Positions 9,477 to 38,029 of a stretch of 38,029 nt of DNA are shown here, one piece after another. Under the pieces are notes generated by a model. That model was not told the origin of the DNA, did no database searches, and saw nothing but the letters and a program-made list of their open reading frames with translations. The stretch's first letter is position 1. The number at the start of each line of letters is the position of its first letter. A program made the position numbers and the translations under genes. This DNA is from a virus (taxonomy: Duplodnaviria > Caudoviricetes). The stretch is from positions 1-38,029 of the IMG/VR virus record IMGVR_UViG_3300042318_000047, one strand, 5' to 3'.

Positions 9477-9642
9477 CCGGGATGTAGGCACAAGCCTCTG
9501 ATGCGCTTGTCTCTACATTCACAACCAAAGTGCGTGGGCTAATTACTTGTTCAGGGTGACTAAGCCAACGCCGACAATTCTTGCAGTAGTTATCAGGGAA
9601 CACTGGTTCACACCGACAAACATCAGGCAGCAGGGGTGTCAT
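9445..9642 (-). CDS. Small Cys-rich hypothetical protein
   Basis: 'DVCRC...YCKNCRRW...C'; last gene of the leftward operon, overlapping the endolysin 3' end convergently. Confidence 0.55.
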   Translation of the reverse strand: MTPLLPDVCRCEPVFPDNYCKNCRRWLSHPEQVISPRTLVVNVETSASEACAYIPVSFQERPKRV

Positions 9643-9865
9643 CTTTGTATTCCAACTCAAGCAACAACTCTAAGTAATGAATGGCCTTGCGTATGTCAGC
9701 AGCGCCGCCTTTGGTTTTGTACCTAGTTACATACTTCACCACGTTCCCGGCACAAAAGCCTAGATTGTTGGCGTGAATGTAAACGATAGGCTGGATGCCT
9801 TTGTCTTTGTAGTGGTTACCTGATACTTGTTTGTCAAGTGCAGATACTGAAACAGTAAATGGCAT
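9623..9865 (-). CDS. DUF3310 / SaV-like protein
   Basis: 'QVSGNHYK...IQPI...GFCAGNVVKYVTRY..KGG..DIRKAIHYLE'. Confidence 0.85.
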   Translation of the reverse strand: MPFTVSVSALDKQVSGNHYKDKGIQPIVYIHANNLGFCAGNVVKYVTRYKTKGGAADIRKAIHYLELLLELEYKDDTPAA

Positions 9866-10182
9866 TACGACTCCTTTACAAACTGACCGTCTTTGTTCAT
9901 GTAGCCCTTGCGATGCTCAATGACCTTGTAAGCGTTATAGAAGCATTGACGAACATCTAGGTCACACAGCACACCTACGTTGACTAGGGTGACCATCACA
10001 TCACCAATAGCATCAGCAATCTCCGCACGGTCATTGGCAGTAACAGCAGCAAACAACTCATTTGCTTCTTCTACTGTTTTCTTGGCTTGACCCAATGCTG
10101 TGCCGTTCTCGTAGATACCACGAGCAGCAGCCCATTGCATGACCTGAAATTCTGTCATGCCAAACGATTGCGTTTCTTTCAT
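9865..10182 (-). CDS. MazG-like nucleotide pyrophosphohydrolase
   Basis: 'QWAAARGI', 'KTVEEANEL', 'IADAIGDVMVTL', 'RKG...GQFVKE'; start taken at the ATGA overlap. Confidence 0.85.
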   Translation of the reverse strand: MKETQSFGMTEFQVMQWAAARGIYENGTALGQAKKTVEEANELFAAVTANDRAEIADAIGDVMVTLVNVGVLCDLDVRQCFYNAYKVIEHRKGYMNKDGQFVKES

Positions 10183-10490
10183 ACTGTCCATTCTCTTTCG
10201 TTACGACCTGAGTTTGATTTGACTGTCTTGCCTGTTAGGAACACCATGCCCATAACTTTCATTTCGTTCATGCGCCGGGCAACTTGATTTCCATCAAGGC
10301 CAGTTAACCCTGCAATACCATCTTTTCCAAGTGGCCCATGTTCTTTTAGGCAATCAGAAATAAGATTCCAATGCTTTGCAGTCATGTTCTCAACTGAGTC
10401 TGCTGCTTTAAACGATTCAACAGGATCAGTTGCCCGAACACGGGGAAACTTGATGTCAAAAAACTCTTTAAACTTGTTTGCGTATTCCAT
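10179..10490 (-). CDS. Winged-helix DNA-binding protein
   Basis: 'RATDPVESFKAA' followed by a wHTH pattern (LKEHGPL...QVARRMNEM...GRNEREW); start at MEYANK with AGGA RBS. Confidence 0.6.
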   Translation of the reverse strand: MEYANKFKEFFDIKFPRVRATDPVESFKAADSVENMTAKHWNLISDCLKEHGPLGKDGIAGLTGLDGNQVARRMNEMKVMGMVFLTGKTVKSNSGRNEREWTV

Positions 10491-10559
10491 GTCTTGTCCT
10501 AAGTTATGGATGTTAGCAACATTATTGAATGACAATAACATTGCTAATTTTCCAATAAG

Positions 10560-10721
10560 TTAATCAGTACCGCCAACTTGCATTACTTCAGCGTCTGTCT
10601 CTTGTTCTTTAAACTGTTGAACAAGTTTCTGGTGTAGCGGGAAAGCACCAGATTCTGTTGGCAGTTGTCCAAGAACACGGACAATAAAAGCGGCTTCATT
10701 TGCGTCAAGATTAAAAGTCAT
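10560..10721 (-). CDS. Small protein, 53 aa (MTFNLDANEAAFIVRVLGQLPTESGAFPL...); paralogue of 6923-7066
   Basis: Hand-translated; GGAGA RBS upstream. Confidence 0.75.
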   Translation of the reverse strand: MTFNLDANEAAFIVRVLGQLPTESGAFPLHQKLVQQFKEQETDAEVMQVGGTD

Positions 10722-10733
10722 AGTTTCTCCAAG

Positions 10734-10997
10734 TTAAAAGGGTGCGTCTGAATCATCAAATTGAACATTAAGGCGTTTAGGGCTTAAAGCCTGTTTAACG
10801 GGCCTATCTTCTTTTGGCTTGACTGACAGGCTCATAAACTTTTTGCCTGTCTTCTCGCTTGTTTTAAGCCATCCTGACACCCACATGTCAACACCATTAA
10901 CATTCAGACTGCCTTTGTAGTCTGGATGATTGTCTTGTTGCTTGTCATCGTTTTTAAAGATGGCTCCGCGATTGCTGTTGTCGTATTGCATTTTCAT
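10734..10997 (-). CDS. Small ssDNA-binding-like protein
   Basis: 'HPDYKGSLNVNG..MWVSGW' beta-rich core, acidic 'DDSDAPF' tail typical of SSBs, adjacent to the annealase. Confidence 0.6.
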   Translation of the reverse strand: MKMQYDNSNRGAIFKNDDKQQDNHPDYKGSLNVNGVDMWVSGWLKTSEKTGKKFMSLSVKPKEDRPVKQALSPKRLNVQFDDSDAPF

Positions 10998-11608
10998 TCC
11001 TTTGCTTTTTTAATAGCCGACCGGGTTTTGCTATCCAGCAATGACCACAGTGCGACCTTTTGATCAGCCTCAAGATTCTCAGAGTCAAGCCTGTCAAGGG
11101 CTTGCTTTGGGTTTCCTTCAGCCACGTTAGCGATTAGATCAATCGCTAATTCCTGAAGGTACTGCATTTCCTCTGGAGGAATAGTGTCTGCAATACCTTG
11201 CGATGGTGTGATGATGACTTTTTTGTCTTCTACAGGCTTAGACGAATCAAGCGCATCGTGTTCTACGATCTCAAGCGCAGCAACCCACAGGTATCTGCGA
11301 ATGTAGGTCTGCACAGCGCCAAGGTTCTGAACGGGATGACAGCCTTTAAGATTGGCTTCCGACATGGGAGACTCAATCACAATCATTTCTTCTGGCTTGT
11401 CAGTGTTAATGATCCGCATATCAGCAGACTCTTTGCCAAAGCTAATAATGCTTGTTAAACCAACTTCATCAAAGATGCTTAGTGCTGGAACAATAAAGTC
11501 TCCAAGTTCAAAATACTTGTAGCCAGCAAACTTGTTGTGGCCTGACTTTTTCAGTTCAGTGCTGTGAAACTTATGACGAGCATCATTAAGTTTTTGATAG
11601 ACGTTCAT
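10994..11608 (-). CDS. ERF-family single-strand annealing recombinase
   Basis: 'KKSGHNKFAGYKYFELGDF' and 'QNLGAVQTYIRRYLW'. Confidence 0.85.
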   Translation of the reverse strand: MNVYQKLNDARHKFHSTELKKSGHNKFAGYKYFELGDFIVPALSIFDEVGLTSIISFGKESADMRIINTDKPEEMIVIESPMSEANLKGCHPVQNLGAVQTYIRRYLWVAALEIVEHDALDSSKPVEDKKVIITPSQGIADTIPPEEMQYLQELAIDLIANVAEGNPKQALDRLDSENLEADQKVALWSLLDSKTRSAIKKAKE

Positions 11609-11763
11609 GCTACTTTCCTTACAGGTTGAGCCAACAGCCAGTTAGGGCCAAGCTGGATAACAGAACGCACCCACTTGCGTTGGTACTGCTGAATGACTTG
11701 TGGTGGCGCATCGTAAGTTTTAAACAACTCACGGGCTTTGCAACGAATTTGGAATGTAGTCAT
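11605..11763 (-). CDS. Small basic hypothetical protein (52 aa)
   Basis: Hand-translated MTTFQIRCKAREL...QRKWVRSVIQLGPNWLLA; GAGG RBS; ATGA overlaps at both ends. Confidence 0.7.
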   Translation of the reverse strand: MTTFQIRCKARELFKTYDAPPQVIQQYQRKWVRSVIQLGPNWLLAQPVRKVA

Positions 11764-11924
11764 TCTTGCACCTCTTTTGGCTCTGATCGAACCAACGTAA
11801 TGCTATCTGGAAGATGACGGTATGAGTCAGCTACAACTTCATTAAAGCCGTAGCCTTCAACCATCTTGTTTGCGTAGTCAAGAACAATTTTCTCGACTTC
11901 AGCGCGGGACAACGTAATTTTCAT
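11760..11924 (-). CDS. Small hypothetical protein (54 aa), first gene of the leftward operon
   Basis: Hand-translated MKITLSRAEVEKIVLDY...; AGGAG RBS. Confidence 0.7.
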   Translation of the reverse strand: MKITLSRAEVEKIVLDYANKMVEGYGFNEVVADSYRHLPDSITLVRSEPKEVQE

Positions 11925-11950
11925 TTGAACTCCTGTCTTGTTGAGCCTTT

Positions 11951-11994
11951 ATCTTATGACGCATCAACAAAAAAAACATTAGGACAAACCCTAA
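11951..11994 (-). promoter_or_regulatory. Putative leftward promoter: -10 TAAGAT with upstream TTAGGG-N4-(T)CCTAA dyad
   Basis: ATCTTA at 11951-11956 (TAAGAT on minus strand); TTAGGACAAACCCTAA at 11979-11994. Confidence 0.45.
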
Positions 11995-12022
11995 TAGACA
12001 ACCGGGTCAACAATGATACTCT
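11995..12022 (+). promoter_or_regulatory. Putative rightward sigma70 promoter, possibly giving a leaderless mRNA
   Basis: TAGACA-16 nt-TACTCT with an extended TG; ATG 12030 is 8 nt downstream and has no RBS. Confidence 0.35.
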
Positions 12023-12029
12023 TGCCAGC

Positions 12030-12221
12030 ATGAACACACCAGACCACCACGAAACTGCCGCAGCACAGGAGCTTTGCGTTACTGCAATCCAAGCTGTCAA
12101 GCAGTACACTCCCGATCCCGGCGACTTTGAAGCAGCTACCGTTGCTGTTTTAGCTCGGGCCATTGAACTCACCACGAAGAAGGAACTAACACTGTGTTAC
12201 CAGCAAAACTCTACTACTTAA
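12030..12221 (+). CDS. Hypothetical protein
   Basis: First rightward gene; start reassigned to MNTPDHH. Confidence 0.55.
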   Translation: MNTPDHHETAAAQELCVTAIQAVKQYTPDPGDFEAATVAVLARAIELTTKKELTLCYQQNSTT

Positions 12222-16370: not shown

Positions 16371-16825
16371 GGAAGGTTTGTCGCCGCAAGATATATCAAT
16401 TGGTCAACCCAATAGCACACGCCATTGCTGGCGCAGGTATTACAACAGACGATTGCCTTAAACAACTTAAAGACAAAGAGCTTGCCGCCATCGAATCTAT
16501 GCGTATAGGCAAAGCTACTGTCTACACATGGCAAGAACTGGTAGACATGAACAACATATGTCAGGTCATGGCAAGGAACGGCATTGGGCCAGAAGCACTG
16601 CCTGACTCCATGATGGCTGAGATTGAGCTAAAACACGCCGCCAAGCGATTTGAAGCCACAGGTAAGATGCTGCTCACAGGTACAGGTTTAAGAGCCATAA
16701 ACGAGGTTTTGGAGTGGCATCACCTTCAGCGTTCATCAGTCAGTCGCTCAGAATACGAGCGCATGATCGAAAAAACCCGCAACAAAATTCGCTCTAGGTC
16801 AAAAGACGTTACGGTTATACAATGA
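16367..16825 (+). CDS. Hypothetical protein
   Basis: ATGA-coupled; start reassigned to MRKVCRRK. Confidence 0.7.
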   Translation: MRKVCRRKIYQLVNPIAHAIAGAGITTDDCLKQLKDKELAAIESMRIGKATVYTWQELVDMNNICQVMARNGIGPEALPDSMMAEIELKHAAKRFEATGKMLLTGTGLRAINEVLEWHHLQRSSVSRSEYERMIEKTRNKIRSRSKDVTVIQ

Positions 16826-16842
16826 TGGAAGGAGAATCCACC

Positions 16843-17232
16843 ATGAAATTCAGCATCAAAGAAGCCCCTCAAAACGTCATGGGCGAATTCGCTATGTGCT
16901 TGCTCAATGGCGTGACAGCAGGGCATATCCACCACCTTGGCACTGACAGCTACTCACAGCATATGGCTTTGGGTGATTTCTACGATGGCCTTGACGATCT
17001 GTCAGACAAATTTATTGAGGCATACCAAGGCCGATACTCGAAAATAATTTTCGCGGAAAAGGCACTTTTTCTGGGGGAAAATGGTTTGGCGCTTGTTCAG
17101 TATGTCTGTGACCAAATCGAAAGCTACCGCAAAATGCCCGGTTTTCCGCAAGACAGTGAACTGCAAAACATCGTGGATGAACTGCTTGACTTGGCAGATT
17201 CCACCAAATACAAGTTGAGATTTCTAAAATAA
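16843..17232 (+). CDS. Ferritin/Dps-like four-helix protein (DUF5856-like)
   Basis: 'HIHHL.T.SYSQHMALGDFYD....DKFIEAYQG' and 'LQNIVDE...TKYKL'; AAGGAGA RBS before ATG 16843. Confidence 0.7.
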   Translation: MKFSIKEAPQNVMGEFAMCLLNGVTAGHIHHLGTDSYSQHMALGDFYDGLDDLSDKFIEAYQGRYSKIIFAEKALFLGENGLALVQYVCDQIESYRKMPGFPQDSELQNIVDELLDLADSTKYKLRFLK

Positions 17233-17432
17233 TGCCACTCATTAAGAAACAATCAGGCTGGTATTGGGGTTCGCAAGGGCCATTCGATACAAAAGCTAAA
17301 GCACTGGCAGTTTCTCGGGCTGCTTACGCTTCTGGCTACAAAGCACAGAGCAAAGATGTGATTTCCTACAGGATTGACGAAGGTTCTTGGAAACCATCAG
17401 CAAATCTGGTCAGAAAATTTGAGAAGGCTTAA
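17232..17432 (+). CDS. Small basic hypothetical protein
   Basis: 'GWYWGSQGPF.TKAKA....AAYASGY'; TAATG coupling. Confidence 0.65.
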   Translation: MPLIKKQSGWYWGSQGPFDTKAKALAVSRAAYASGYKAQSKDVISYRIDEGSWKPSANLVRKFEKA

Positions 17433-17478
17433 ACAATTTTTTTGTATTTTCTTCAGATTTCCGGAAAGGGAAATTTTT

Positions 17479-17505
17479 TGCCTAGTCCAGCTAGGCATTT
17501 TTTTT
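17479..17505 (+). terminator. Intrinsic terminator of the rightward operon
   Basis: TGCCTAG-TCCAG-CTAGGCA followed by T8. Confidence 0.8.
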
Positions 17506-17855
17506 CTTCTAAATTTTTTTTCCGAAATGCGTAGTTGGCTTTTAGACTTTTCTGGCCTTTATTAAGCACTTGGTTATATAAGCCATATGCCATGTGTGTA
17601 AGCACTCACTTCGCATCAGAATAAACCCCTACTACGTAGGGGAAAACCCGTAAGGGTAAACCCTTAATTTGTCTGGTTGCAGCAGCACAGGCAGACCAGC
17701 AGCAGACCACAAACCAGACCATGCCACCACAAAGGCCCACATCAGGCCCACAGTAGACCATTTGCCCTGTGCATGTAGGGTAGTGGCTTGACCATCTAAA
17801 AATGGCTTGTAGACCCCTACATCAAGAAGTGAGCACTCACTTACATAACAGGCCC

Positions 17856-17881
17856 AAAAAAACCCGGTCTAAGACCGGATT
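17856..17881 (-). terminator. Intrinsic terminator of the leftward small-gene operon
   Basis: Minus strand reads AATCCGGTC-TTA-GACCGGG followed by T7, 18 nt after the 17899 stop. Confidence 0.8.
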
Positions 17882-17898
17882 CTCTTGGGGCTGTTTAG

Positions 17899-18135
17899 TC
17901 AGGCCAGACACCAAAAATCATCCCTGTGTACTTCTCTTGGCTCTTGATCTTCTGGCCCATTTAAAAGAAAGACATCTAGTAAACCACATCCCCAAATAGT
18001 ATCAACAATATAAAGCTGCACAGGCTGCCCATAATCATCAAGGCAGACCCCGACAGAGTTGATGCAGATTTCTTTTGGCATTTTGTAATCTGCCTTCTCT
18101 TGTAATTCAATATCCAATTCAGAAAAATAACTCAT
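17899..18135 (-). CDS. Small acidic hypothetical protein
   Basis: AAGGAGA RBS; last gene before the terminator. Confidence 0.7.
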   Translation of the reverse strand: MSYFSELDIELQEKADYKMPKEICINSVGVCLDDYGQPVQLYIVDTIWGCGLLDVFLLNGPEDQEPREVHRDDFWCLA

Positions 18136-18149
18136 TTTAATATCTCCTT

Positions 18150-18800
18150 TTAATGTAATTCATAAGACACAGGCACAGCAGACCAGCAGACCCTGCACTC
18201 TTTGCACTCACCACCCTGTGTAGGTGCTTTACAAGCTTCGCCAATAGGTGAGCCAGTATGTACATTAGATACAGTGATATTTTTAATACCCTGTAGGCTG
18301 CTTGGCACTTTTACTGGTTGATCTGGATACATAGCAGATAACCGAATAATAAGATTATCGGGAAGACTGCCATATTTAGAGATATATTCTTTAATCATTG
18401 AATATTCTCTTGTAGGTAGCCAGTGCATGGTGTCTGGTGTCTGTGCTGCTACCTGTGCGATTTTCTCCAAGTGCCACAGGCCTTGAAGGTCTCCACTGTC
18501 GTGCCATCTGAAGTAAGCATCAAGCCCAATTAAAGCCACCATTGATGCAACCCAGTGCTCACTAGTCAGAGAATCTAATCTAGCGTGTTGTGCAGGCTGT
18601 ATGGTGTTTTGATACATCGAATAGAAACCCTTGTCTGCATAACAAGTGCTGCAAATGCTGCCTTTAATCTGTGCCATTTTGTAACCAGTAATACAAGCCA
18701 CAGTAGGCAGAGAATAAGACTTACAAGGCATCTTAGAAGTTTGAGTTAATCCACCATTAATAGTGGAAGCCACTTTTTTAAGCATAAATATTTTGTGCAT
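18150..18800 (-). CDS. GP88-family protein (radical-SAM-like Cys motif)
   Basis: 'TSKMPCKSYSLP', C-x13-C-x2-C-YA, 'YFRWHDSGDL', 'HWLPTRE', 'NLIIRLS', C-terminal C-x8-C-x2-C-x2-C. Confidence 0.8.
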   Translation of the reverse strand: MHKIFMLKKVASTINGGLTQTSKMPCKSYSLPTVACITGYKMAQIKGSICSTCYADKGFYSMYQNTIQPAQHARLDSLTSEHWVASMVALIGLDAYFRWHDSGDLQGLWHLEKIAQVAAQTPDTMHWLPTREYSMIKEYISKYGSLPDNLIIRLSAMYPDQPVKVPSSLQGIKNITVSNVHTGSPIGEACKAPTQGGECKECRVCWSAVPVSYELH

Positions 18801-18825
18801 TTTGTCTTCTCTTGTGTTGTGTTGA

Positions 18826-18921
18826 TTAATAAGTCAGGATATCAAAATAGGCCAGTGCAAAACCACACAGCACAAGGCCCAAAAGAATCGCTGTCAATAT
18901 GTCCAATATAGTTTCTTTCAT
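18826..18921 (-). CDS. 31-aa membrane peptide (MKETILDILTAILLGLVLCGFALAYFDILTY)
   Basis: Hand-translated; AAGGAGA RBS like its neighbours. Confidence 0.7.
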   Translation of the reverse strand: MKETILDILTAILLGLVLCGFALAYFDILTY

Positions 18922-18933
18922 TTCTGTTTCTCC

Positions 18934-19218
18934 TTAGATTGTTGATTCATAAACTTCAGACCATTCATTCATAAATGGCGTACAGGTGTAGTCCACCACT
19001 GTTTCATCATCTTCAAGACCAAAGGCAGACACTAAAGCCCATCCAATAATGGCGTCTTTCTGCCTGAATCTAAGCTGTGCTTCTTCCACTGATTCAATGG
19101 CATCAATGATGGCCTTGTAACCAGTGCTTCTTTTAACTTGCCATTCTTCACCATCCCACACAGAGACAGTGCAACCCATTGACAAGGCATGCTTGATTAA
19201 GTGCTTGTAGGCTTTCAT
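18934..19218 (-). CDS. Hypothetical early protein
   Basis: AAGGAGA RBS; 'TVSVWDGEEW' motif. Confidence 0.75.
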   Translation of the reverse strand: MKAYKHLIKHALSMGCTVSVWDGEEWQVKRSTGYKAIIDAIESVEEAQLRFRQKDAIIGWALVSAFGLEDDETVVDYTCTPFMNEWSEVYESTI

Positions 19219-19230
19219 CTTGGTTTCTCC

Positions 19231-19455
19231 TTAAATTAAGTCTGTCAAGGCGCACGACTGCTGCAGTCTGCTTGGTTGTGTTGCCCATTTATTAAGAGTG
19301 TCATAAGCATCCTTTTTATCGTCTGTGTGATAGTCAGCATCTTTTAAGACTTTCCCGTTTTCGTAAAACTTGACCACATATTCATTCCACTCAGCGTTTC
19401 TATACAGAGTGGCTTTAAAGCCTTGACCGTTATCAATACCAAGAATTTTTCGCAT
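19231..19455 (-). CDS. Hypothetical early protein
   Basis: AAGGAGA RBS; 'EWNEYVVKFY...DYHTDDK.DA' motif. Confidence 0.75.
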   Translation of the reverse strand: MRKILGIDNGQGFKATLYRNAEWNEYVVKFYENGKVLKDADYHTDDKKDAYDTLNKWATQPSRLQQSCALTDLI

Positions 19456-19467
19456 GGCGTCTTCTCC

Positions 19468-19692
19468 TTATTTGCCTGTGGCGTAGTTATGCAGGGTCTT
19501 CACATAGTCACGAAATGATTTATGGGACTTGGCATTCATGTACCAAGCCACCACTACAGTGCCTGACTTCCTGACACCTAAGAAGATGCCCTTGTTAGTC
19601 TTGTCTCCTGCATAGACCCATTGACCGGGTTGAATGTGCTTATAGAAAGCATCGGGCATGGCCCACACATTGAATGCTGGTTGATATTTCAT
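19468..19692 (-). CDS. Hypothetical early protein
   Basis: Start reassigned to MKYQPAF (AGGAGA RBS); 'IQPGQWVYAG...KGIFLG' SH3-like pattern. Confidence 0.7.
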   Translation of the reverse strand: MKYQPAFNVWAMPDAFYKHIQPGQWVYAGDKTNKGIFLGVRKSGTVVVAWYMNAKSHKSFRDYVKTLHNYATGK

Positions 19693-19937
19693 TTTGATTC
19701 TCCTGTAGTGGCTTTCTTGATAACAGACAAGATGTACTGGCATTCGGTATCCATTGCAGGGTCAAGGCCCATTTGCATGGTGCTTCTCTCAATGCTTGTA
19801 TATGCCACTTTGAGGGCCAGCAGCAGCTCAGGAGCAGCATCTAATAAAAACTGGTTTTGCATGGTTCTTTCCTTTTCCAATTTTTTAGAGAGTCGCTCTA
19901 TCCAAGAGGAATCAAAAGGGTTTTTTGTGGTGGTCAT
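19689..19937 (-). CDS. Hypothetical early protein
   Basis: Start reassigned to MTTTKNP (AGGAGA RBS); 'AAPELL.ALK' motif. Confidence 0.7.
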   Translation of the reverse strand: MTTTKNPFDSSWIERLSKKLEKERTMQNQFLLDAAPELLLALKVAYTSIERSTMQMGLDPAMDTECQYILSVIKKATTGESK

Positions 19938-19959
19938 GGTGTTTTCTCCTGTGGGTTGA

Positions 19960-20190
19960 TTACTTGCAGACTTTGACTTTAAGGCCACCTTTAGGGCCAA
20001 TGGTGAATTGGACAATGAAGTGAGTGTCAAACCAGTGCTTTGACTGTGTGTTGCTGCCTTGAATGAATACCTTGTCTCCTATCTCATCCATAGTGAAAGT
20101 CAACTCACCACCGATGTATTTGCAAGTTTTCCACTCAACATACTCACGTTTAGTGACTGTCTGTGCTACTTTGATTTGCTTGCTGTTCAT
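19960..20190 (-). CDS. Hypothetical early protein, first gene of the operon
   Basis: AAAGGA RBS; 'IGPKGG' C-terminal motif. Confidence 0.7.
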   Translation of the reverse strand: MNSKQIKVAQTVTKREYVEWKTCKYIGGELTFTMDEIGDKVFIQGSNTQSKHWFDTHFIVQFTIGPKGGLKVKVCK

Positions 20191-20251
20191 AATTTAATCC
20201 TTTGGTTTGCTAAACTGTGTATGGGCTGCGTCATCCTGTCCCATGCTTTGG

Positions 20252-20296
20252 ATTTTAGTGTTATCCACACAAAACTATTCTTAGGGATAACCCTAT
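20252..20296 (-). promoter_or_regulatory. Putative leftward early promoter: -10 TAAAAT, DnaA box in the spacer, TAGGG-N4-CCCTA dyad upstream
   Basis: ATTTTA 20252-20257; TTATCCACA 20261-20269; TAGGGATAACCCTA 20282-20295. Confidence 0.5.
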
Positions 20297-20576
20297 GTTT
20301 CTATAGAAAGTCTGCACATATAGATATATGCAGCATCTAGATGGGCTGAATGAATCTGCCTGTTTTTTGAGCAAAGCCAATAGAAGGCCTACAAGGCACT
20401 TTTTAGCCCACTTGGGCTTTCCCCATGCTTACCCCTTGGCAAAAGTTATCCACACTGGTAGTGCTATTCATCCACAGATTTTGGTCTTATATAAGACTGA
20501 CAACCTGTGTATAACTCTGGCCCACATCTTGCACATCTGTGGATAAATTGACGTTTTGTGGATAACGTGTGGATAA
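20261..20576. promoter_or_regulatory. Cluster of DnaA boxes
   Basis: TTATCCACA at 20261 and 20446; TCATCCACA at 20468; reverse TGTGTATAA at 20506; reverse TGTGGATAA at 20538, 20557 and 20568. Confidence 0.85.
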
Positions 20577-20583
20577 TGGCTAG

Positions 20584-21009
20584 ATGCCCACATCACCACC
20601 CACACAGTGCAGCAAATACAGGTGCAAGCATCCCTCTGTCAAAGGAAGCAGCTTTTGTGCAGAGCATGCACCACCCAAGACCACCACCCAAGACAGACAA
20701 GCATTCAATGCCCATTACAAGACTGCTGCATGGGCCAAGCAAAGAGCCATTCAGTTATCTAAACAGCCACTCTGTCAGGCCTGTTTATTGAATAACCAGA
20801 TAACCCAAGCAGAGCATATTGACCATTTATTCGCATGGTCTGCACTTGGTGAATATGCCTTTAAATCCAACATATTTCAAAGCCTGTGCGAATCCCATCA
20901 TTCATTCAAAACAGGTCTTGAATCAAAGGGTATATACAGACATTACACAGTTAATGGGGAAAAGGATTATTCCCTTTCTGATTATCATTCTGTAATTACT
21001 TCTGGTTAA
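20584..21009 (+). CDS. Terminase-associated HNH endonuclease (HK97 gp74-like)
   Basis: N-terminal C..C..C..H, 'QPLCQAC', 'HIDH', 'QSLCESHHSFKT'; immediately upstream of terS. Confidence 0.85.
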   Translation: MPTSPPTQCSKYRCKHPSVKGSSFCAEHAPPKTTTQDRQAFNAHYKTAAWAKQRAIQLSKQPLCQACLLNNQITQAEHIDHLFAWSALGEYAFKSNIFQSLCESHHSFKTGLESKGIYRHYTVNGEKDYSLSDYHSVITSG

Positions 21010-21109
21010 TATCCACCATTACCCTGTGCATCCATACAGTACACATCCCATTATGTAATGCTTGTGTTTGCAATATAGCATCAACAAGCCATGCCATCCC
21101 TCAAAAAGT

Positions 21110-21200
21110 AGTACCCATGCCGTACCAAGCGGACAATTTGAAACTAAAAGTTTGCGCTTTGGCGTAGGAGCAGGCGCGGGGACGATTGCGTAGAGATGCA
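21110..21200. other. Predicted cos/genome-end region
   Basis: HNH-cos-terS order is standard in HK97-like cos phages; GC-rich AGCAGGCGCGGGG stretch; abrupt change in CG frequency at ~21120. Exact cut site cannot be assigned. Confidence 0.5.
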
Positions 21201-21273
21201 AAGTCAGGAGTGGGTGTACGAACTGTCGGTTTGTGGTACGCTAAAGCATGACAAGACAACAGGAACTAACCCT

Positions 21274-21645
21274 ATGGCAAAAAAACCTCGTCACATTCTC
21301 GGCTACTTAAACGACCCTTCCACTTGGGACAGGTCTGCGTTTGAGACTGCTATTCGCGCTGAAGTCGAAGCCTCGACAGGAACGCTCACGGCATCAGATG
21401 AGTTGCTTGTTGGTGCGCTAGTCATTACTGTTGACAGTATGCTGACAGCAGAAATCAACATCCGTGAGCAAGGCCACACGTTTACTTACAACTCAGGGGA
21501 TGCCACAAGTCCGTGGTACAAGATTCGTACTGAGATGGCTGACAAGGCTGTCAAGATGCTGGCTGAGTTGGGGCTTGTTGCCCGTGGTCGCCCAAAGTTG
21601 AAGGCAAAAGTGAGTGATGTAGATGAGCTATTCGCCACTGCTTAA
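21274..21645 (+). CDS. terS: Terminase small subunit (P27-like)
   Basis: AGGA RBS; 'IREQG...SPWYKI...LAELGL..RGR'; overlaps terL. Confidence 0.8.
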   Translation: MAKKPRHILGYLNDPSTWDRSAFETAIRAEVEASTGTLTASDELLVGALVITVDSMLTAEINIREQGHTFTYNSGDATSPWYKIRTEMADKAVKMLAELGLVARGRPKLKAKVSDVDELFATA

Positions 21646-23302
21646 CCCTGCGTTTGAGTATGCGGTAGCGGTAACTAGGGGTGACATTCAGGCGTGTGAG
21701 GATGTCAAACTAGCTTGCCAACGGTTCTTGGATATGGTCGAACGTAAGGATGCGCCTTACGAGTTTGTCCCTGCCAAGGCTGAACACATCCTTAAATTCG
21801 TCAAGTTCTGCCGCCATGTCAAAGGTCCAGATGCCGGGAAGCCAATTGAGCTACAGCCGTTTCAGGTTATGTACTTGGCTGGCGTTTACGGGTTTAGGGA
21901 CAGGCGTGACCACTCCTTCCGTTATGTCACTGATGTCATTTTGTTCGTTCCTCGTAAGTCAGGCAAGACAACCATTGCGTCCATCATTGCGCTGTATGAG
22001 TTGCAGTTTGGTGATGCTGGTGCTGAAGTGTTTACTCTGGCTACCAACAGGGATCAAGCGTCTATTTGCTTTGATTCGTCCAAGGCTATCGTAGAAAACA
22101 TGAGGCCAGAGTTGGGAGCTAAGTTTATTGCCTACCGCAGTGAACTGAAGAAGGCTGGCGACTCGACCTCTACTTACCGTGCGCTGTCACGCGAAAACCG
22201 TAAGACAGGTGACGGTAAGAACCCGTCCTGTGCAATGATTGATGAGGCTGCTCAGATTACTGAGAGACAGTCTATTGAGGTCTTGCATTCGGGTATGGGC
22301 GCTCGCAAGAACCCTTTGAGGATGTACCTGACAACTGCCAGCTTTACTAAGGAAACCAAGTTCTTTGAAGACCTTTCGCACTACCGTAGCGTGTTGCGTG
22401 GCGCTGCTCCTGATAGTCATCGCTGGTTTGGCCTACTTTATAGCATTGACCCCGGCGATAATTGGGCTGACCCTGCGGTATGGGGCAAAGCGAACCCGAT
22501 GCTTGGGATATCGGTCACGACTCAGCACATTCAGCAAATGGCTGAAGAAGCGTCTGCCAAGCCAGCAAGCCTGAACGAGTTCCTGTGTAAGCAGTTGAAT
22601 ATCTATGTATCGGCTAATTCTGCTTGGGTTGACAGAAGACATTGGGATGAATCGGTCACTCCAATGCCGAAAGAAAAGCCTGAAGCTACATTTGTTGCTT
22701 TTGACTTGGCTCACACGCGAGATTTGAATGCTGTTTGCACTTTGCACAGATACAGCGAAGAAGATTTTTATGCCAAGTTCCAATTCTTTCTACCGGAAGA
22801 ATCTATTGACTTAATTCCAAACCACTACAAGAGCATATTTTCTCAGGCTCATGCAAGTGGCATTTTAAGGCTCACGCCGGGTAACGTAACCGACCTTAAT
22901 GAAGTTGAGTCGTACATTAAACAAGAATGCGAAAAGCACAGCGTTAAAGAAGTTGGCTACGATCCATATAACGCAGCCGCTTTGGTAGCTAACCTGTACG
23001 CTGATGGATTACCTGTAAAGAAAGTTGGTCAGGGTATGGCTATGTTGTCAAACCCGTCTAAGACCACTGAGCAATTGATTCTGAAGAAGGCAATTCACCA
23101 TGATGGCAACCCGTTTGTTGGTTGGCAACTAGGTAACTGCGAGGTTTACACCGATGTCAACGGCAACGTAAAAGTCAGGAAGAATGAAGCAGACCCGTCA
23201 GCCAAAGTGGACGGTATTATTGCCATGATTATGGCTTTGCACTGCCATTTGGATAACGTGTTTGTCAGTGATTCATTTGGCTTTAGAGCAATAGAGTGGT
23301 AA
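21623..23302 (+). CDS. terL: Terminase large subunit
   Basis: 'LQPFQ', Walker A 'VPRKSGKT', Walker B 'AMIDE', 'TTA' motif C, nuclease 'FDL', 'YDPYN', 'KVDGIIA'. Confidence 0.97.
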   Translation: MSYSPLLNPAFEYAVAVTRGDIQACEDVKLACQRFLDMVERKDAPYEFVPAKAEHILKFVKFCRHVKGPDAGKPIELQPFQVMYLAGVYGFRDRRDHSFRYVTDVILFVPRKSGKTTIASIIALYELQFGDAGAEVFTLATNRDQASICFDSSKAIVENMRPELGAKFIAYRSELKKAGDSTSTYRALSRENRKTGDGKNPSCAMIDEAAQITERQSIEVLHSGMGARKNPLRMYLTTASFTKETKFFEDLSHYRSVLRGAAPDSHRWFGLLYSIDPGDNWADPAVWGKANPMLGISVTTQHIQQMAEEASAKPASLNEFLCKQLNIYVSANSAWVDRRHWDESVTPMPKEKPEATFVAFDLAHTRDLNAVCTLHRYSEEDFYAKFQFFLPEESIDLIPNHYKSIFSQAHASGILRLTPGNVTDLNEVESYIKQECEKHSVKEVGYDPYNAAALVANLYADGLPVKKVGQGMAMLSNPSKTTEQLILKKAIHHDGNPFVGWQLGNCEVYTDVNGNVKVRKNEADPSAKVDGIIAMIMALHCHLDNVFVSDSFGFRAIEW

Positions 23303-25664: not shown

Positions 25665-27014
25665 ATGTCCCAAGTTATCCTCGAAAAACTGGATGCTATC
25701 GAAGCTAAACAAGCCGAAAGCATCACTGCTGTAGAAGCCAAAATCCCTGCTGCTGTTGAGGCTGTTAAAGCTGAATTCAGCGAGATGGTTTCTGCTCTAG
25801 AAGCCAAAGTTGCTTCTATCAATATGCCTGAGTTCATTCGCACACCCGCTAAGACTGTTCGCCAAGATGTGAACCGTTCGGTGCGTGAGCAACTGGCTAC
25901 TTTCTACAAAGGCAACAACCGTTTGGAAAAAGAACTGCAAATCTTTGCAGACGAAGCCCAAATGGATGCGTACCTGAAAGAAGCCTCTGCCTTGACCGCT
26001 GGCGGTGATGGCAAGGGTGGTCGTACTGGCTACGATCCAGTGTTTGCTGCTCTGCGTTTGGCTAACCCCATGCGTGGTCTGTCGCGCACTGTGGCTACCG
26101 ATGGTTCTAGCTATCAATTCCGTGTCAAAACTGGCAATGCTGGTGTGGCATGGGGCTATACGATCCAGAACAACGGCTCGACCACAACTGAAGACACAAG
26201 CATCTGGCAATTGGTTCTGCAAGACTTGAACGTGCAGTTCCCAATCCGTACTGCTGCTTTGGATGACGTTGACGGTCTGGAAGCCAACGTGGTTGACGAT
26301 ATGCTGGCTGAGTTTGCTCAAGCCGAAGCCTTGTCGATGATCCAGAACAACGACCAAGCTGCTCAGTCGGGTACTAACCCCTACGGTGGAACTAACGGTT
26401 TGCGCGGCCTTGATAGTTACGGTGGTTCTAACGCCACTTACACTGGTGGCACAACTTCTGTTGCTGCTTTTGGCACTTCTGGCACTGGTTCTTCAAGCGG
26501 TCTGCACTCGCTGGCTACTTATGACCAGTTGACCTCTAACGTCAACACTGTTGGTTTGAACAACATTGTTTACAAAGATGTTATTAACACTGTCTACGCC
26601 TTGCCACAGCAGTATTGGACTCCTAACACCAAGTTCATGGTCAGCCCAATCTTGGCTCAAGCCATCCGTGGTCTGCAAGACACCAATGGTCGTCCGATCT
26701 TCAACTCTATGGAGTCGTTGAACCCTGATGGCATTATTGGTCAAATGCTTGGCTTTGACGTTGTGATGAACAAGTATCTGGACACTCCTAGCCAAACTAC
26801 AGCGGGTTCTGCTGGCACAACTAGCCTGTACCCAATGTACTTTGGTGATTGGAGCCGTAGTCACACAATCATTGATCGTTTGAACATGGTTATGCGCCGC
26901 TACGACCAGACGCTGCCCGGTTTTATCACCTTCTTTGGTGAGAAGCGTTTGGCAACTTCTGTACGCGACCCGAATGCCCTTATTCGGTATCGTTCAACAG
27001 CTACAGCTACCTGA
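25665..27014 (+). CDS. Major capsid protein 1, HK97 fold with N-terminal delta (scaffold) domain
   Basis: ~106-aa helical N-terminus, then capsid core ('LQDTNGRPI', 'LGFDV', 'YFGDW', 'EKRL'). Confidence 0.93.
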   Translation: MSQVILEKLDAIEAKQAESITAVEAKIPAAVEAVKAEFSEMVSALEAKVASINMPEFIRTPAKTVRQDVNRSVREQLATFYKGNNRLEKELQIFADEAQMDAYLKEASALTAGGDGKGGRTGYDPVFAALRLANPMRGLSRTVATDGSSYQFRVKTGNAGVAWGYTIQNNGSTTTEDTSIWQLVLQDLNVQFPIRTAALDDVDGLEANVVDDMLAEFAQAEALSMIQNNDQAAQSGTNPYGGTNGLRGLDSYGGSNATYTGGTTSVAAFGTSGTGSSSGLHSLATYDQLTSNVNTVGLNNIVYKDVINTVYALPQQYWTPNTKFMVSPILAQAIRGLQDTNGRPIFNSMESLNPDGIIGQMLGFDVVMNKYLDTPSQTTAGSAGTTSLYPMYFGDWSRSHTIIDRLNMVMRRYDQTLPGFITFFGEKRLATSVRDPNALIRYRSTATAT

Positions 27015-27020
27015 TAAATC

Positions 27021-27047
27021 GGAGGGGCGTAAATGCCCCTCCTTTTT
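27021..27047 (+). terminator. Intrinsic terminator between the two capsid genes
   Basis: GGAGGGGCG-TAAA-TGCCCCTCC followed by TTTTT. Confidence 0.85.
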
Positions 27048-27070
27048 GTGCCAATAATTTAGGAACTGAT

Positions 27071-28114
27071 ATGACCATTACCGAACGCATCCTGTCTGGA
27101 ATTAAGCAAACATTGGAAACTGGCGATAAAGTCACGATTGACTTGCGCGAGGCATCTGCTATCACTGGTTCAGGCTTGAATATCGGTGGTCGCACTTACT
27201 TTGATGACGCATTTGCTACTTTGCGATATGCAAACCCGTTTCGTCTAGGCGCACGAAACATTAAAGTACCCGGTAATTCCGCTGTTCAGTTTGTTGCCAA
27301 AACTGGTAACGCTGCCAACAGCACAAACCCTTGGGGCTACACAATTAACCCCAACAGCGGTTCACCCAACATTGACACTAGCATTTGGCAATTGCCCACC
27401 CGTGTCATTACCGCACAAATGCCAATTCGTTCTGCTGTGCTGTCTGATGTTAATGGTCTGCAAGCCGAATTGGTTGAAGACCTGATGATGGAATTTGCTC
27501 AATTGGAAGGCGCATCGTGCGGCCTCAACAACGACCAAGCAGGTTCAACAACTACAGCTACAGGTGGCACTGATGGTTTGCGTGGCCTGAACAGCTACCC
27601 CGGCGCTGCTGGCGCTGCTGCTGCTTTTGGAACAAGCGGTACAGCCATCACTAATGGTCGCCACACAATCAGGACTGTTGGCTACAACAACACTGGTGGC
27701 CTTGAAGCAGAAGTTTTGTCAGCAATGGCAAATGCTTTGCCAGCGCAATACTGGTCACTGCCGGGTACTGCTTGGATGATGCACCCAACAGCCATTCAAA
27801 CTTTGCGAGACTATGCTCACGGTGGCTCTGGTTATTCTTTTGTAGAAACAGGTTCTGCTGAAGCAGGTTCGTTGCTGCATGTGTATGGATTTCCTGTGAT
27901 TCCTAACCCATATTTGGACGCAACTGCTACTGTTGGCTGCAAGTCGATGTATCTTGCCAACTGGCCTCGTTTTATGACGATTGCCGATGTGGAAGAAATG
28001 ACCATTCAGGCTTTTGAACAAACTGCGCCCGGTTTTACGACCATGTACGCTGAAAAGCGTATGGTAAGCACAGTGCGTGATGTTTTTGCTGGTGTTCGTT
28101 CTATCGAGACTTAA
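27071..28114 (+). CDS. Capsid protein 2, HK97-fold paralogue lacking most of the delta domain
   Basis: Colinear with MCP1: EASAITG..GGRT, LRYANP, KTGNA, DTSIWQL, NNDQA, GLRGL, ALPAQYW, EKR...VRD. Confidence 0.9.
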   Translation: MTITERILSGIKQTLETGDKVTIDLREASAITGSGLNIGGRTYFDDAFATLRYANPFRLGARNIKVPGNSAVQFVAKTGNAANSTNPWGYTINPNSGSPNIDTSIWQLPTRVITAQMPIRSAVLSDVNGLQAELVEDLMMEFAQLEGASCGLNNDQAGSTTTATGGTDGLRGLNSYPGAAGAAAAFGTSGTAITNGRHTIRTVGYNNTGGLEAEVLSAMANALPAQYWSLPGTAWMMHPTAIQTLRDYAHGGSGYSFVETGSAEAGSLLHVYGFPVIPNPYLDATATVGCKSMYLANWPRFMTIADVEEMTIQAFEQTAPGFTTMYAEKRMVSTVRDVFAGVRSIET

Positions 28115-29596: not shown

Positions 29597-30091
29597 ATGG
29601 CTTTACCAAACAAAGTTCTTCCCGGTTTTAGCGCGGCTCTGTACGCACAGCCCGGAGCCACACCTACTCCTTTGACTACTGCTCAGTTGTCCTTGGTTGC
29701 AAGCGTTGGCCCATTGGCTGTTATTGGCAACTTGATTCCTGTCGAGGCAATCCCTGCTTTCGGTATGGATGATGCTGTTGCCAGTTTCGGCGTGGCTGGT
29801 TCGCGTCAATCTGACAAGATTCCGGTTCAGGCGGCTCCTACATCCATGACCATCACGGCTGCATGGAACCCTGCTGACACCAACTTGTTGCTGATGCGTG
29901 CTGATGCCTATTCTGGCGTCATTGACCGCACTTTCATTGTCTCGGCTACCGAGGGTGCAAACATCGTTTATTACGCCTTTAACGGGCGTGTAGGCCAGTT
30001 CCAAGTAGATTCGGCTCCCGGTGCAGAAGCCAAGGCTACATTTACCATCCATCCCCGTGGCAATCAGTACGGTTGGTCTAACAACGCTTAA
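29597..30091 (+). CDS. Major tail (tube) protein, paralogue 1
   Basis: Position, size and beta-rich pattern 'PTSMTIT..W.P', 'AFNGRV', 'FTI'; GAAGGA RBS. Confidence 0.8.
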   Translation: MALPNKVLPGFSAALYAQPGATPTPLTTAQLSLVASVGPLAVIGNLIPVEAIPAFGMDDAVASFGVAGSRQSDKIPVQAAPTSMTITAAWNPADTNLLLMRADAYSGVIDRTFIVSATEGANIVYYAFNGRVGQFQVDSAPGAEAKATFTIHPRGNQYGWSNNA

Positions 30092-30100
30092 GGAGTCATC

Positions 30101-30619
30101 ATGGCTATCCCTGCAAAAGTTCTTCCCGGTTTTGCCGCATCGTTGTGGATGCAATCGGCTGCTACTCCAACTCCATTGACAACCGCTAACTTGTCTGTGT
30201 GGGTTGCTCAAGTAACCACTATCGTGGGCACTTCAGCCAACGGTACTGGCGGTGCTGGTGTTGCTGTGCCTGTTGAAGCAATCCCTGCCTTTGGCATGGA
30301 TGATGCGGTGGCAAGTTTCGGTGTTGCTGGCTCCCGTCAAAGCGACAAGATTCCTGTGCAAGCGGCTCCTACAAGCATGACCATTACTGCTGCTTGGAAC
30401 CCGTCTGACGCAGCCTTGTTGCAGATTCGTGCTGACGCTTACTCTGGTGTTGTTGACCGTACTTTCGTGGTTGCAGCAGTTGAAAGCACAAACACTGTTG
30501 CTTATGCGTTTAACGGTCGTGTTGGTCAATTCCAAATTGACTCTGCACCCGGCGCTGAAGCCAAATGCACATTTACTATTCATCCACGGGGCAACCAGTA
30601 CGGCTGGTCGAACAACTGA
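30101..30619 (+). CDS. Major tail (tube) protein, paralogue 2
   Basis: Shares a 45-aa identical block with paralogue 1; AAGGAG RBS. Confidence 0.8.
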   Translation: MAIPAKVLPGFAASLWMQSAATPTPLTTANLSVWVAQVTTIVGTSANGTGGAGVAVPVEAIPAFGMDDAVASFGVAGSRQSDKIPVQAAPTSMTITAAWNPSDAALLQIRADAYSGVVDRTFVVAAVESTNTVAYAFNGRVGQFQIDSAPGAEAKCTFTIHPRGNQYGWSNN

Positions 30620-36538: not shown

Positions 36539-38029
36539 ATGGTTGGGACAATGATTGTTGCGGCGTACTACAGCATTGGCGTAGGTGTTGCTTTATCTGC
36601 CGCACAAATGGCAGTTGCTTTCGCAATTAACTTTGCTGTGTCTTCATTGATGGCCCGAGCTTTTGCGCCTGATTCCAGCAGCAATCAGGCAGTAGACAAC
36701 GGGGTGCGTCAACAAGTTCCTCCATCGTCAACAAACAGTATTCCTGTTGTGTACGGAGATGCTTACATGGGTGGTTCGTTTGTAGATGCTGCATTAAGCA
36801 CCGATGCAAAGACCATGTACTATGTTTTGGCGATTTCACACATCAGCCCTAACGGTCAATTTTCTTTTGACCTAGCAGATATGTATTGGGGTGATCGCAA
36901 AATTACTTTTGATGGCACAGACCAGACCAAGGTTGTTAGCCTGACTGACAGCGCAGGGAACATAGACACTAAGGTTAGTGGCAACCTGTTTATAGCTTTG
37001 TACAAGTCAACAGAAGCGGGTGTTATTACTTCTGCCAACGGAGCCTCTTTGCCATCAACCTACATGGGCGGCTCAGACTTGCCTTTTGAGTTGCGGTGGG
37101 CAGCAACTAACCGTCAAATGAACGGTCTTGGTTTTGCAATTGTAAAAATGAATTACAACCGTGAAGCAGAGACTACAAATATGCAGACTCTGACTTTTTC
37201 TGTTAGCCATTACCTTAACGGTACTGGCGCAGCAAAGCCGGGGGACGTTTGGTACGATTACATTACAAACGAAAAGTATGGCGGCGCTATGCCAGCAGAC
37301 TTGGTAGATTCTGCCTCGGCTACTGCTTTGAATGCCTACTCTGATGGCTTAATACCTTACACAGATACAACAGGCGCACAAACACAACCTCGTTACCGGA
37401 TTAACGGTGTTATGGATACAGGGCAATCATGCCTAAACAACATTAACTCCATCATGATCGTATGCGATTCGTGGAATCAGTACAACGCAGCGCAAGGCAA
37501 GTGGAGCATCGTTATCAACAAAGAAGCGTCAACAGCATATGCGTTTGATGATGACTCAATTGTTGGAGAGATTCGCGTCAGTGCTTACGACATTACAAGC
37601 AGCGTCAACCAGATTGAAGCCGAGTTTCCTAGCGGTCAAAACCGTGACCAATCTGATTTTGTGTATTACGAGACTCCAGCAGGTTTGCTGTATCCCAACG
37701 AACCAATCAACAAGCAATCAGTTCAGTTTGCGATGACCAACGATTCAGTTCAAGCGCAGTACCTTGCAACTCGAATTCTTGAGCAAGCCCGTGAAGACCT
37801 GATTGTGAGTTTCAGCACAGCATATGTTGGCATTCAAGTTGATGCTGGCGATGTGGTGACTGTAACCAACTCATCTTATGGCTGGACAAACAAGCCATTT
37901 AGGGTGATGCGTGTGTCTGAAGTGTCTTTGCCTGATGGCAACCTTGGCGCATCGTTTGAGTTGAACGAATACAACGCACAGGTGTATGACGATCAGGACA
38001 TCACAAAGTACATTCCAGCCCCCAACTCA
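36539..38029 (+). CDS. Tail tip / host-specificity protein (gpJ-like), N-terminal part; runs off the window and continues at base 1
   Basis: Hand translation MVGTMIVAAYY...NSIPVVYGDAY... ('IPVVYG' signature); missing from the ORF track because it has no stop in the window. Confidence 0.85.
   Translation, partial: MVGTMIVAAYYSIGVGVALSAAQMAVAFAINFAVSSLMARAFAPDSSSNQAVDNGVRQQVPPSSTNSIPVVYGDAYMGGSFVDAALSTDAKTMYYVLAISHISPNGQFSFDLADMYWGDRKITFDGTDQTKVVSLTDSAGNIDTKVSGNLFIALYKSTEAGVITSANGASLPSTYMGGSDLPFELRWAATNRQMNGLGFAIVKMNYNREAETTNMQTLTFSVSHYLNGTGAAKPGDVWYDYITNEKYGGAMPADLVDSASATALNAYSDGLIPYTDTTGAQTQPRYRINGVMDTGQSCLNNINSIMIVCDSWNQYNAAQGKWSIVINKEASTAYAFDDDSIVGEIRVSAYDITSSVNQIEAEFPSGQNRDQSDFVYYETPAGLLYPNEPINKQSVQFAMTNDSVQAQYLATRILEQAREDLIVSFSTAYVGIQVDAGDVVTVTNSSYGWTNKPFRVMRVSEVSLPDGNLGASFELNEYNAQVYDDQDITKYIPAPNS
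37770..38029 (+). repeat. Terminal direct repeat, copy 2
   Basis: Matches 1-260. Confidence 0.95.

Follow-up and report, generated by a model that had tools for sequence, protein, structure and literature searches.

Avoidance of single sites in the DNA that is injected first is already known from T5-like and T7-like phages. According to the excerpted text of PMC10644984, restriction sites in T5-like phages matter mainly, if not only, in the first-injected DNA, and the excerpt of PMC12455610 reports that T7-like phages and Murciavirus tolerate Type I sites elsewhere and not in their early-injected region. The leading regions of conjugative plasmids enter first as well and are rich in anti-defence genes, as far as the excerpt of PMC13478746 goes. 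Here, we have analysed a phage genome record, IMGVR_UViG_3300042318_000047, whose whole length of 38,029 nt is called the window below, together with related loci (L numbers) and near-complete genomes (G numbers). At the right end of this HK97-like genome, next to the cohesive end site (cos), lies a 3.6-kb cassette that is purged of short words. It is a native exchangeable block with fixed borders, swapped whole between near-identical cores, and it is probably first-entering DNA purged of host-defence motifs. An earlier note on this DNA had proposed a CG-depleted genome end that enters first in the manner of a miniature T5; the feature is strong and reproducible, and the positional part of that idea holds and generalises, while the parts specific to CG and to T5 membership do not.

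The loss of CG in the window is deep. Between 17650 and 21120, 35 CG dinucleotides are present against 120.7 expected from the rest-of-genome CG rate and local base composition (Poisson P 4e-20); the ratio is 0.22, and the lowest among 296 equal-length windows elsewhere is 0.65. The earlier hand counts were exact: 35 CG in 17701-21120 (observed/expected, o/e, 0.23), 7 in 20041-21120, 54 in 21121-22140 and 29 in 16621-17220, with GC dinucleotides normal within the depleted stretch. The abrupt switch it placed near 21120 was recovered too, as the maximum-likelihood CG-poor segment runs from 17330 to 21120, and the switch at 21121 lies 50 bases inward of the right end. The loss touches Arg codons, NCG codons and codon junctions; in the HNH gene, in agreement with the note, none of the 4 Arg codons is CGN, and none of the 42 NCN codons is NCG. 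Nulls that keep local composition or preserve the proteins leave the depletion standing, so low G+C (42% in the cassette vs 47% in the core) and protein content are ruled out as causes, and small leftward genes per se are ruled out by the other leftward operon of the window (9600-12200), which has a CG ratio of 0.71. CG partly recovers at 19001-19750 (o/e 0.49-0.60), within the 74-aa genes, possibly a recent acquisition in which the purge is incomplete. Several of the genome-wide scans used a rotated window that left out 36901-37769 (CG o/e 0.90).

CG is accompanied by other words. GAAC/GTTC, which we take to be the Dnd phosphorothioate motif, occurs 2 times in 17650-21120 against 29.4 expected, and CCGC (0 vs 12.6), ACGG (2 vs 17.0) and AAC (79 vs 159) are depleted in the same interval. 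The top strand carries GAAC 0 times and GTTC 2 times, which counts out selection on translation or RNA in the window. The earlier note had proposed a look at palindrome avoidance; a single palindromic site set is ruled out, the lowest words being mostly non-palindromic and seldom zero. Nearly every 4-mer keeps residual copies, and the loss varies with context, the ratios to background being 0.13 for CCGC, 0.15 for CGCG and 0.21 for GAAC vs 0.76 for CCGG and 0.69 for TCGA.

The position of this stretch follows from the genome termini. The window is a circularly assembled siphophage of 37.8 kb with the order HNH-cos-terS-terL-portal-protease-capsid, which is HK97-like. In run X3, from an independent study, one contig stops at 21170 and the next starts at 21181 with zero differences; a contig of run X4 also ends at 21170, and run X1 holds a contig that spans the site. 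Among relatives, 19 of the 73 terL loci begin at the base that follows the same ten letters, and the right-end contigs of L141, L144, L322, L332, L335 and L337 halt at GGAG, directly before the overhang. The overhang is missing from both contig ends, which suggests its 3' polarity. The site thus falls between HNH and terS, where the earlier note had expected it, and the depleted stretch is the end opposite terS, packaged last in the standard model. An assembly artefact is ruled out, as the pieces of the region recur in four runs with 0 differences. The two ends of the record overlap by 260 bases (1-260 and 37770-38029, 95% identical) within the central tail-fibre gene, which suggests a strain mixture at the assembly join. 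The best-matching sequencing runs are lake metagenomes, and the nearest cultured relative is the Methylophilaceae phage P19250A (terL 60.6% identical). The sole match in the genome collection, L243, has a 95%-identical terL on a 4.8-kb contig in a Chitinophagaceae metagenome-assembled genome; it is likely a phage fragment binned there.

The borders of the cassette are fixed. L001, whose terL is 100% identical, matches the window up to 17556, breaks and resumes at 21132; in L335 and L322 homology breaks at 17557 and 17583 and resumes at 21091 and 21103, so that homology to differently purged relatives stops within 17556-17583. Preceding the left break is an element made of a hairpin and a T tract, which could be aligned across 18 relatives. 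The block itself consists of a leftward operon that is hypervariable, followed by a control region and HNH. Whatever the class, composition changes stepwise at this boundary element (CG 0.69 to 0.33, AG 1.00 to 0.58, CCAG 1.64 to 0.35, GAAC 0.82 to 0.04), and inside the cassette the purge is flat, with no gradient toward cos. The element is absent from 28 distant HNH loci, G010, G011, G015 and P19250A, and its strict pattern was also missed in G002, G003, G005, G008, G009 and G013; G012 breaks at the element and is uninformative. The element is a candidate stop signal for entry, a terminator or a recombination border. The earlier note had argued that a core packaging gene within the depleted stretch speaks against a single foreign insert. 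The block is indeed native, yet it is exchangeable as a whole, HNH included, so the presence of that core gene does not exclude a cassette.

Such block exchange with fixed borders, together with the lower G+C of the cassette, would also be expected of foreign DNA from throughout CG-poor or AG-poor genomes that has not yet ameliorated, and one distant HNH-relative group with genome-wide AG and GA near 0.65-0.7 does resemble the mild GA/CA type. However, a donor genome that is CG-poor or AG-poor throughout, the discovery of which the earlier note would have counted against its own reading in the case of CG, did not appear among the relatives of the GP88 or 94-aa genes: of 51 GP88 loci, those with a distant flank longer than 2 kb all keep a CG ratio of at least 0.62 there, and the minima for 44 relatives of the 94-aa gene are CG 0.53 and AG 0.83. 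Moreover, the types are scattered over the HNH tree, homologues have been re-purged, and the cos-linked HNH is native to the phage family. We therefore hold a donor signature to be very unlikely.

Relatives keep the position of the purge and differ in its words. CG-type right ends are those of the window, L004, L064, L082, L090, L100, L010, L089 and L140-L144; AG/CT-type right ends, with rho down to 0.23-0.5, are found in L045, L099, L101, L102, L005 and L093; and milder CCAG/GA/CA-type right ends occur in L001, L021, L084, L091, L105 and others. The CG purge on which the earlier note was built is real in the window, while other members of the phage family have at least two further purges in its place; the note's expectation that depletion in relatives would track position and not gene identity was borne out. 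In an unbiased scan of 16 near-complete genomes (G001 read to 40,000 of 40,942), 12 bear a cassette, and for 10 of these the top dinucleotide-depleted segment is that at the right end; in G008 the right-end segment takes second place and in G009, where HNH is beyond the cos-like match, third place. With 140 interior windows as the reference, 26/27 cos-anchored right ends were above their 95th percentile and 21/27 above their maximum, vs none of 20 left ends above the 95th percentile. An out-of-sample search with the boundary element gave 21 loci, 12 of them new; three were too short, and all nine that were long enough are shifted, six being AG-type (0.23-0.35 vs 0.89-0.99 before the element) and three of the mild type.

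The same gene families are purged according to the cassette that holds them. In CG-type cassettes the HNH gene has 2-9 CG vs 15-21 expected (7/8), and in AG-type cassettes 12-21 AG/CT vs 37-47 expected (5/5). The GP88 gene has 7 CG for 22.8 expected in the window, and in L102 it has 34 AG/CT for 75.7 expected with CG at 33 for 24.6; two smaller gene families follow their own cassette's type as well. Codon choice flips accordingly, AGA/AGG making up 114/169 Arg codons in CG-type cassettes vs 17/156 in AG-type ones. A Dps-like gene just outside the cassette shows no CG, AG or GA deficit in 18 relatives. In the AG-type, the loss hits GAG, CAG and AAG and not TAG. Selection on translation or RNA is ruled out for this type because AG and CT drop alike on one strand of L045 (0.33/0.31), and do so across codon junctions (0.38, 0.32) as well as within spacers (39/119 and 35/129). 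Avoidance of ultraviolet dimers is ruled out too, AA/TT being up at 1.4-1.7 in the AG-type.

A local mutational process that erodes the end, such as deamination of methylated or exposed cytosine, would agree with the slight rise of CA/TG (1.45 vs 1.33) and with the transitions that make up 13 of the 20 single changes at CG between L010 and L021. Yet transitions are 69/124 in the background of the same alignment, CC/GG and AG/CT are up as well, the AG/CT and CCAG purges occur without such chemistry, and the border is a step, all of which makes this explanation extremely unlikely.

The purge is tied to the cassette and not to the end as such. HK97 and P19250A share the gene order and the 3' cohesive end, and P19250A the overall layout, but at the right end both lack the purge and the leftward operon of the window: HK97 shows no shift (delta* 0.054), and neither do G010, G011, G015 and P19250A, which have HNH beside the end and no cassette (delta* 0.023-0.051). 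In 21 distant HNH loci, whose control flanks are short, no strong purge was seen (delta* 0.04-0.12, lowest dinucleotide ratio at least 0.73); in the same comparison L139, on the same contig as L100, was mis-anchored. These controls bear on the idea that, as the head nears fullness, the cassette's HNH nickase together with the terminase would cut at short words, which are therefore purged from the final 10% of the genome, the word set travelling with the HNH allele. Zinc-ribbon HNHs adjacent to cos are nickases of 3-7-bp specificity, e.g. CGGT or SRT, in the excerpt of PMC3592412; HNH is present in 30/32 of the cassettes examined, and the idea would explain the last-packaged position, the involvement of both strands and a type that follows the cassette. 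Nonetheless, relatives with HNH beside cos and no cassette are unpurged, and L010 has an HNH 77-80% identical to those of the CA-type and still a CG-purged cassette (54/126). All types share the same cos, whose words are no more purged than other class-dinucleotide words (P 0.10, 0.06 and 0.78); there is no gradient toward cos, and T5 is shifted without a cos. Cutting during packaging is thus an unlikely cause.

The likeness to T5 is close in some respects. In T5, small host-interaction genes occupy a terminal segment that makes up about 8-10% of the genome and that has, like the cassette of the window, a sharply bounded word shift with GAAC loss. Its first-step DNA (AY543070, 1-10,000) has a delta* of 0.21-0.235 vs a maximum of 0.127 in 22 other windows, the same size as the cassette shifts by this measure, and the shift stops near 10 kb; a compositionally distinct, sharply bounded first segment is a feature measured here in T5 and no textbook criterion. 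AG is 0.72-0.85 vs 1.13, GA 0.74-0.79 vs 0.99 and GAAC 0.39, with CG in excess. The T5 4-mer profile correlates with those of seven AG/CA/GA-type ends (r 0.32-0.44; 64 interior windows give a mean of -0.01, standard deviation 0.15, maximum 0.35) and runs opposite to CG-type ends (r -0.24 to -0.46). The earlier comparison with T5 therefore stands in that T5 first-step DNA has the same kind of shift, for which no description was found in open-licence PubMed Central (PMC) and bioRxiv text. Membership in a miniature T5 type does not stand: T5 has a 10.2-kb terminal repeat (10,219 bp) and an A1/A2-dependent second step, whereas the window, a genome of 37.8 kb, lacks a long terminal repeat and ends in a 3' cos of 10 bases. 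The purges are also deeper than that of T5 (CG 0.22 and AG/CT down to 0.23 vs AG 0.72-0.85), and the purge types are interchangeable.

T7 and Murciavirus have a hypervariable first-entering region with an inward-reading operon, as the window probably does, and the geometry of the window fits the T7-type inward operon near the first end, closed by terminators. They are, however, podoviruses with their own RNA polymerase, in which one bipartite site and not a dinucleotide-wide purge is implicated, and the first 3 kb of T7 has almost no dinucleotide shift (delta* 0.062). The plasmid leading region differs from the cassette in entering single-stranded and being codon-adapted (excerpt of PMC13478746).

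Among 61 representatives scanned, cassette proteins match GP88, DUF7227 and DUF7249, and weakly DUF6927 and DUF6926; no gene besides HNH is common to all cassettes, no nuclease family other than HNH was matched, and no A1/A2-like gene was found in PHROGs, Pfam and NCBIfam. It could be argued that a cassette enzyme attacks host DNA at a short motif which the cassette itself lacks, while the rest of the genome waits in the capsid. The purge type does track the cassette, GP88-family or DUF7227 enzymes recur, and the first-step genes of T5 destroy host DNA, while the excerpt of PMC10644984 calls it unclear how the phage DNA escapes. But GP88 is found with the CG purge as well as with the AG purge, no type has a gene that all its members carry, HNH is the only nuclease family matched, and a true pause in entry would be required, which leaves such self-immunity quite unlikely.

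Virion DNA modified at the purged words, by the phage or its previous host, offers another account, in which the first-transcribed region must stay unmodified for the host RNA polymerase or against modification-dependent nucleases. The purge co-occurs with the leftward operon, and some relatives carry a methyltransferase gene, confirmed by Pfam only in G010 (N6_N4_Mtase). Yet no modification gene is present in the window, where no integrase, methyltransferase or phage RNA polymerase was found among 64 open reading frames (ORFs) scanned; none is common to a type in the 16 genomes (67/117 candidate proteins scanned); and the purge extends to HNH, a late gene, and to the spacer between HNH and cos. 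The probability of this account is very small. As a separate observation, L013, L017, L018, L025, L030, L031, L032, L045 and L051 have extra genes between cos and terS, which presumably, from their motifs, resemble DNA methyltransferases. In G007 (L120:12192-15032), a Vut_1 transporter gene lies next to two unnamed genes; Vut_1-type neighbourhoods go with 7-deazaguanine modification.

We therefore favour first-entering DNA purged of host-defence motifs as the probable nature of the right-end cassette. Last-in-first-out is the standard model of phage DNA ejection. With packaging from the terS end, the 3.6 kb between the T-tract element and the 3' cohesive end would enter the host first, and a one-sided purge is what right-end-first entry predicts. 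Selection would have removed from the cassette those motifs that DNA-targeting defences of the host recognise, perhaps a pool of restriction-type systems (restriction-modification, BREX, phosphorothioate-linked). Since sites of 4-7 bases share short cores, the loss of many of them reads as dinucleotide loss, and a strand-symmetric, context-dependent loss that covers spacers and leaves residual 4-mers would fit avoidance of many longer double-stranded sites. The unpurged 90% would be exposed only after the small genes of the inward-pointing operon are expressed, and the products of these genes may protect the later-entering DNA. In a T7-like geometry, the host polymerase would read inward to the terminators at the border. 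Slow or transcription-assisted entry seems likelier than a T5-type gene-triggered second step, because only HNH is common to all cassettes.

Several points weigh against this. No cassette protein matched a characterised anti-defence family in PHROGs, Pfam, NCBIfam or PADLOC. The purge type tracks the cassette and not core or tail (G001, CG-type, compares at 0.60 with G003, CA-type, and at 0.61 with the window), which is not predicted by a host-species explanation. One CG-type HNH, that of L089, is undepleted (20/25.2), the right end of L022 falls inside the null range, and the distant loci L159, L160 and L165 have leftward coding without a shift. Many same-type cassettes are kin (more than 900 identical bases of 3,000), so the counts overstate independence; CG-type lineages on the HNH tree number about four. 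The CG-type profile of the window is anti-correlated with T5 (-0.40), GAAC loss being the sole shared feature. For plasmid leading regions, the excerpt of PMC13478746 reports no consistent depletion of restriction targets, and lambda ejects either end about equally in vitro according to that of PMC10287942, a disputed question on which right-end-first entry, if true, would bear. Perhaps entry is even staged, the genome halting at the T-tract element after 3-4 kb, with interchangeable cassettes (CG-free, AG-free, CCAG/GA-poor) matched to classes of host defence; we consider this extension doubtful.

What is new here is the occurrence in HK97-like cos phages, a purge deep enough to flip codon choice, fixed borders and alternative versions on one backbone; no description of short-word purges of this kind was found in open-licence PMC and bioRxiv text. 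If the favoured explanation is true, first-entering DNA could be located, and host defence motifs guessed, from sequence alone; were entry staged as well, short-word purges would mark first-entering phage DNA in general, that of T5 among it, and would report on the defence motifs of uncultured hosts. Under the favoured explanation, dozens of small genes without a known role would become anti-defence candidates, and the boundary element a candidate cis signal for staged entry.

Table 1. Features at the right end of the window and around cos.
Feature	Position	Strand	Basis or remark
Dps-like DUF5856 gene, outside cassette, unpurged internal control	16843..17232	+	PF19174
Terminator-like hairpin and T run, first half of left boundary element	17479..17497	+	aligned in 18 relatives
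Conserved T-tract element, purge start in all classes	17511..17534	+	alignment
Purged right-end cassette, 3.6 kb, 9.6% of 37.8-kb genome	17535..21170	.	composition
Second terminator-like hairpin of leftward operon	17626-17642		consensus scan
Terminator-like hairpin closing leftward operon	17853..17889	-	consensus scan
78-aa acidic ORF, 20% D+E, no family	17899..18135	-	
GP88-family protein, 216 aa	18150..18800	-	PF17338
94-aa ORF, widespread uncharacterised phage family	18934..19218	-	69 related loci
74-aa ORF, least CG-purged cassette gene	19231..19455	-	phrog_7884
74-aa ORF	19468..19692	-	phrog_21585
82-aa ORF	19689..19937	-	phrog_1273
76-aa ORF, first gene of inward-pointing operon	19960..20190	-	
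Divergent control region, six TTWTNCACA nonamers and palindrome	20261..20576	.	
Zinc-ribbon HNH endonuclease beside cos, within cassette, purged	20584..21009	+	phrog_144; CG 2 vs 16.7 expected
Double-stranded ends	right 21170, left 21181		contig ends
cos, 10-base overhang CAGGCGCGGG, putatively 3'	21171..21180	+	X3/X4 contig ends and relatives
Terminase small subunit, unpurged	21274..21645	+	PF05119; CGN in 6/7 Arg codons
Terminase large subunit, unpurged	21623..23302	+	phrog_9, PF03354, PF20441

The control region contains six TTWTNCACA nonamers, which we take to be the DnaA-box consensus, in 316 bases vs one elsewhere in the window; two point one way and four the opposite. Clusters of 3-7 such nonamers recur mostly in CG-type cassettes (L004, L064, L090, L100, L089, L102, L140, L143, L144). 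A TAGGG-N4-CCCTA-like palindrome lies at 20282-20295 and at 11980-11993, that is in both divergent control regions; it is found near the right end in 21/32 relatives vs 2/42 distant HNH loci, with a box-like nonamer adjoining in 14/32, and is a candidate operator. No consensus leftward sigma-70 promoter was found upstream of 20190. Directly past the boundary element, at 17660-17780, low-complexity short repeats are present, likewise in L021, L082, L095 and L105, and are made of words that the cassette type permits.

The GP88-family protein has invariant cysteines at C36, C50, C53 and C190/199/202/205, with the spacing C36-X13-C50-X2-C53, which departs from the radical S-adenosylmethionine (SAM) motif CX3CX2C; a widened radical SAM motif occurs in one QueE. 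Its predicted structure (predicted local distance difference test score, pLDDT, 89) matches QueE with Z 6.3 and a root-mean-square deviation of 4.0 over 143 residues, spore photoproduct lyase with Z 6.1 and pyruvate formate-lyase (PFL) activase with Z 5.4; all of these are below 8 and near the values of glycosidases. Foldseek with the GP88 model gave no match at E<=0.001. The cysteines and the model make GP88 a candidate for a divergent radical SAM enzyme or another kind of iron-sulphur enzyme. The 94-aa protein also has a confident model, with structure matches solely to uncharacterised phage proteins; the Atlas gave GP88 and hypothetical clusters only.

GP88 relatives occur near the right ends of mycobacteriophage records. 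Gene 88 of mycobacteriophage L5 is leftward and close to the right end, like GP88 of the window, to which it is weakly similar (26% over 125 aa, E 3e-4). L5 is, however, a temperate actinophage whose entire right arm is leftward; its last 3 kb has a mild GA/TC shift (ratio 0.78), and no sharp cassette or strong purge was measured. In L200, L201, L204, L208 and L223, which have unrelated terminases, GP88 is part of a divergent operon that directly precedes terS-like genes. Local 3-kb composition shifts were observed at those operons (L200 CA 0.88 vs 1.37; L201 and L204 AG about 0.5). Elsewhere in the window, two tandem major-capsid-like genes (25665-28114) and two tandem tail-tube-like genes (29597-30619) were found, the latter pair being 77% identical in DNA over 348 bases.

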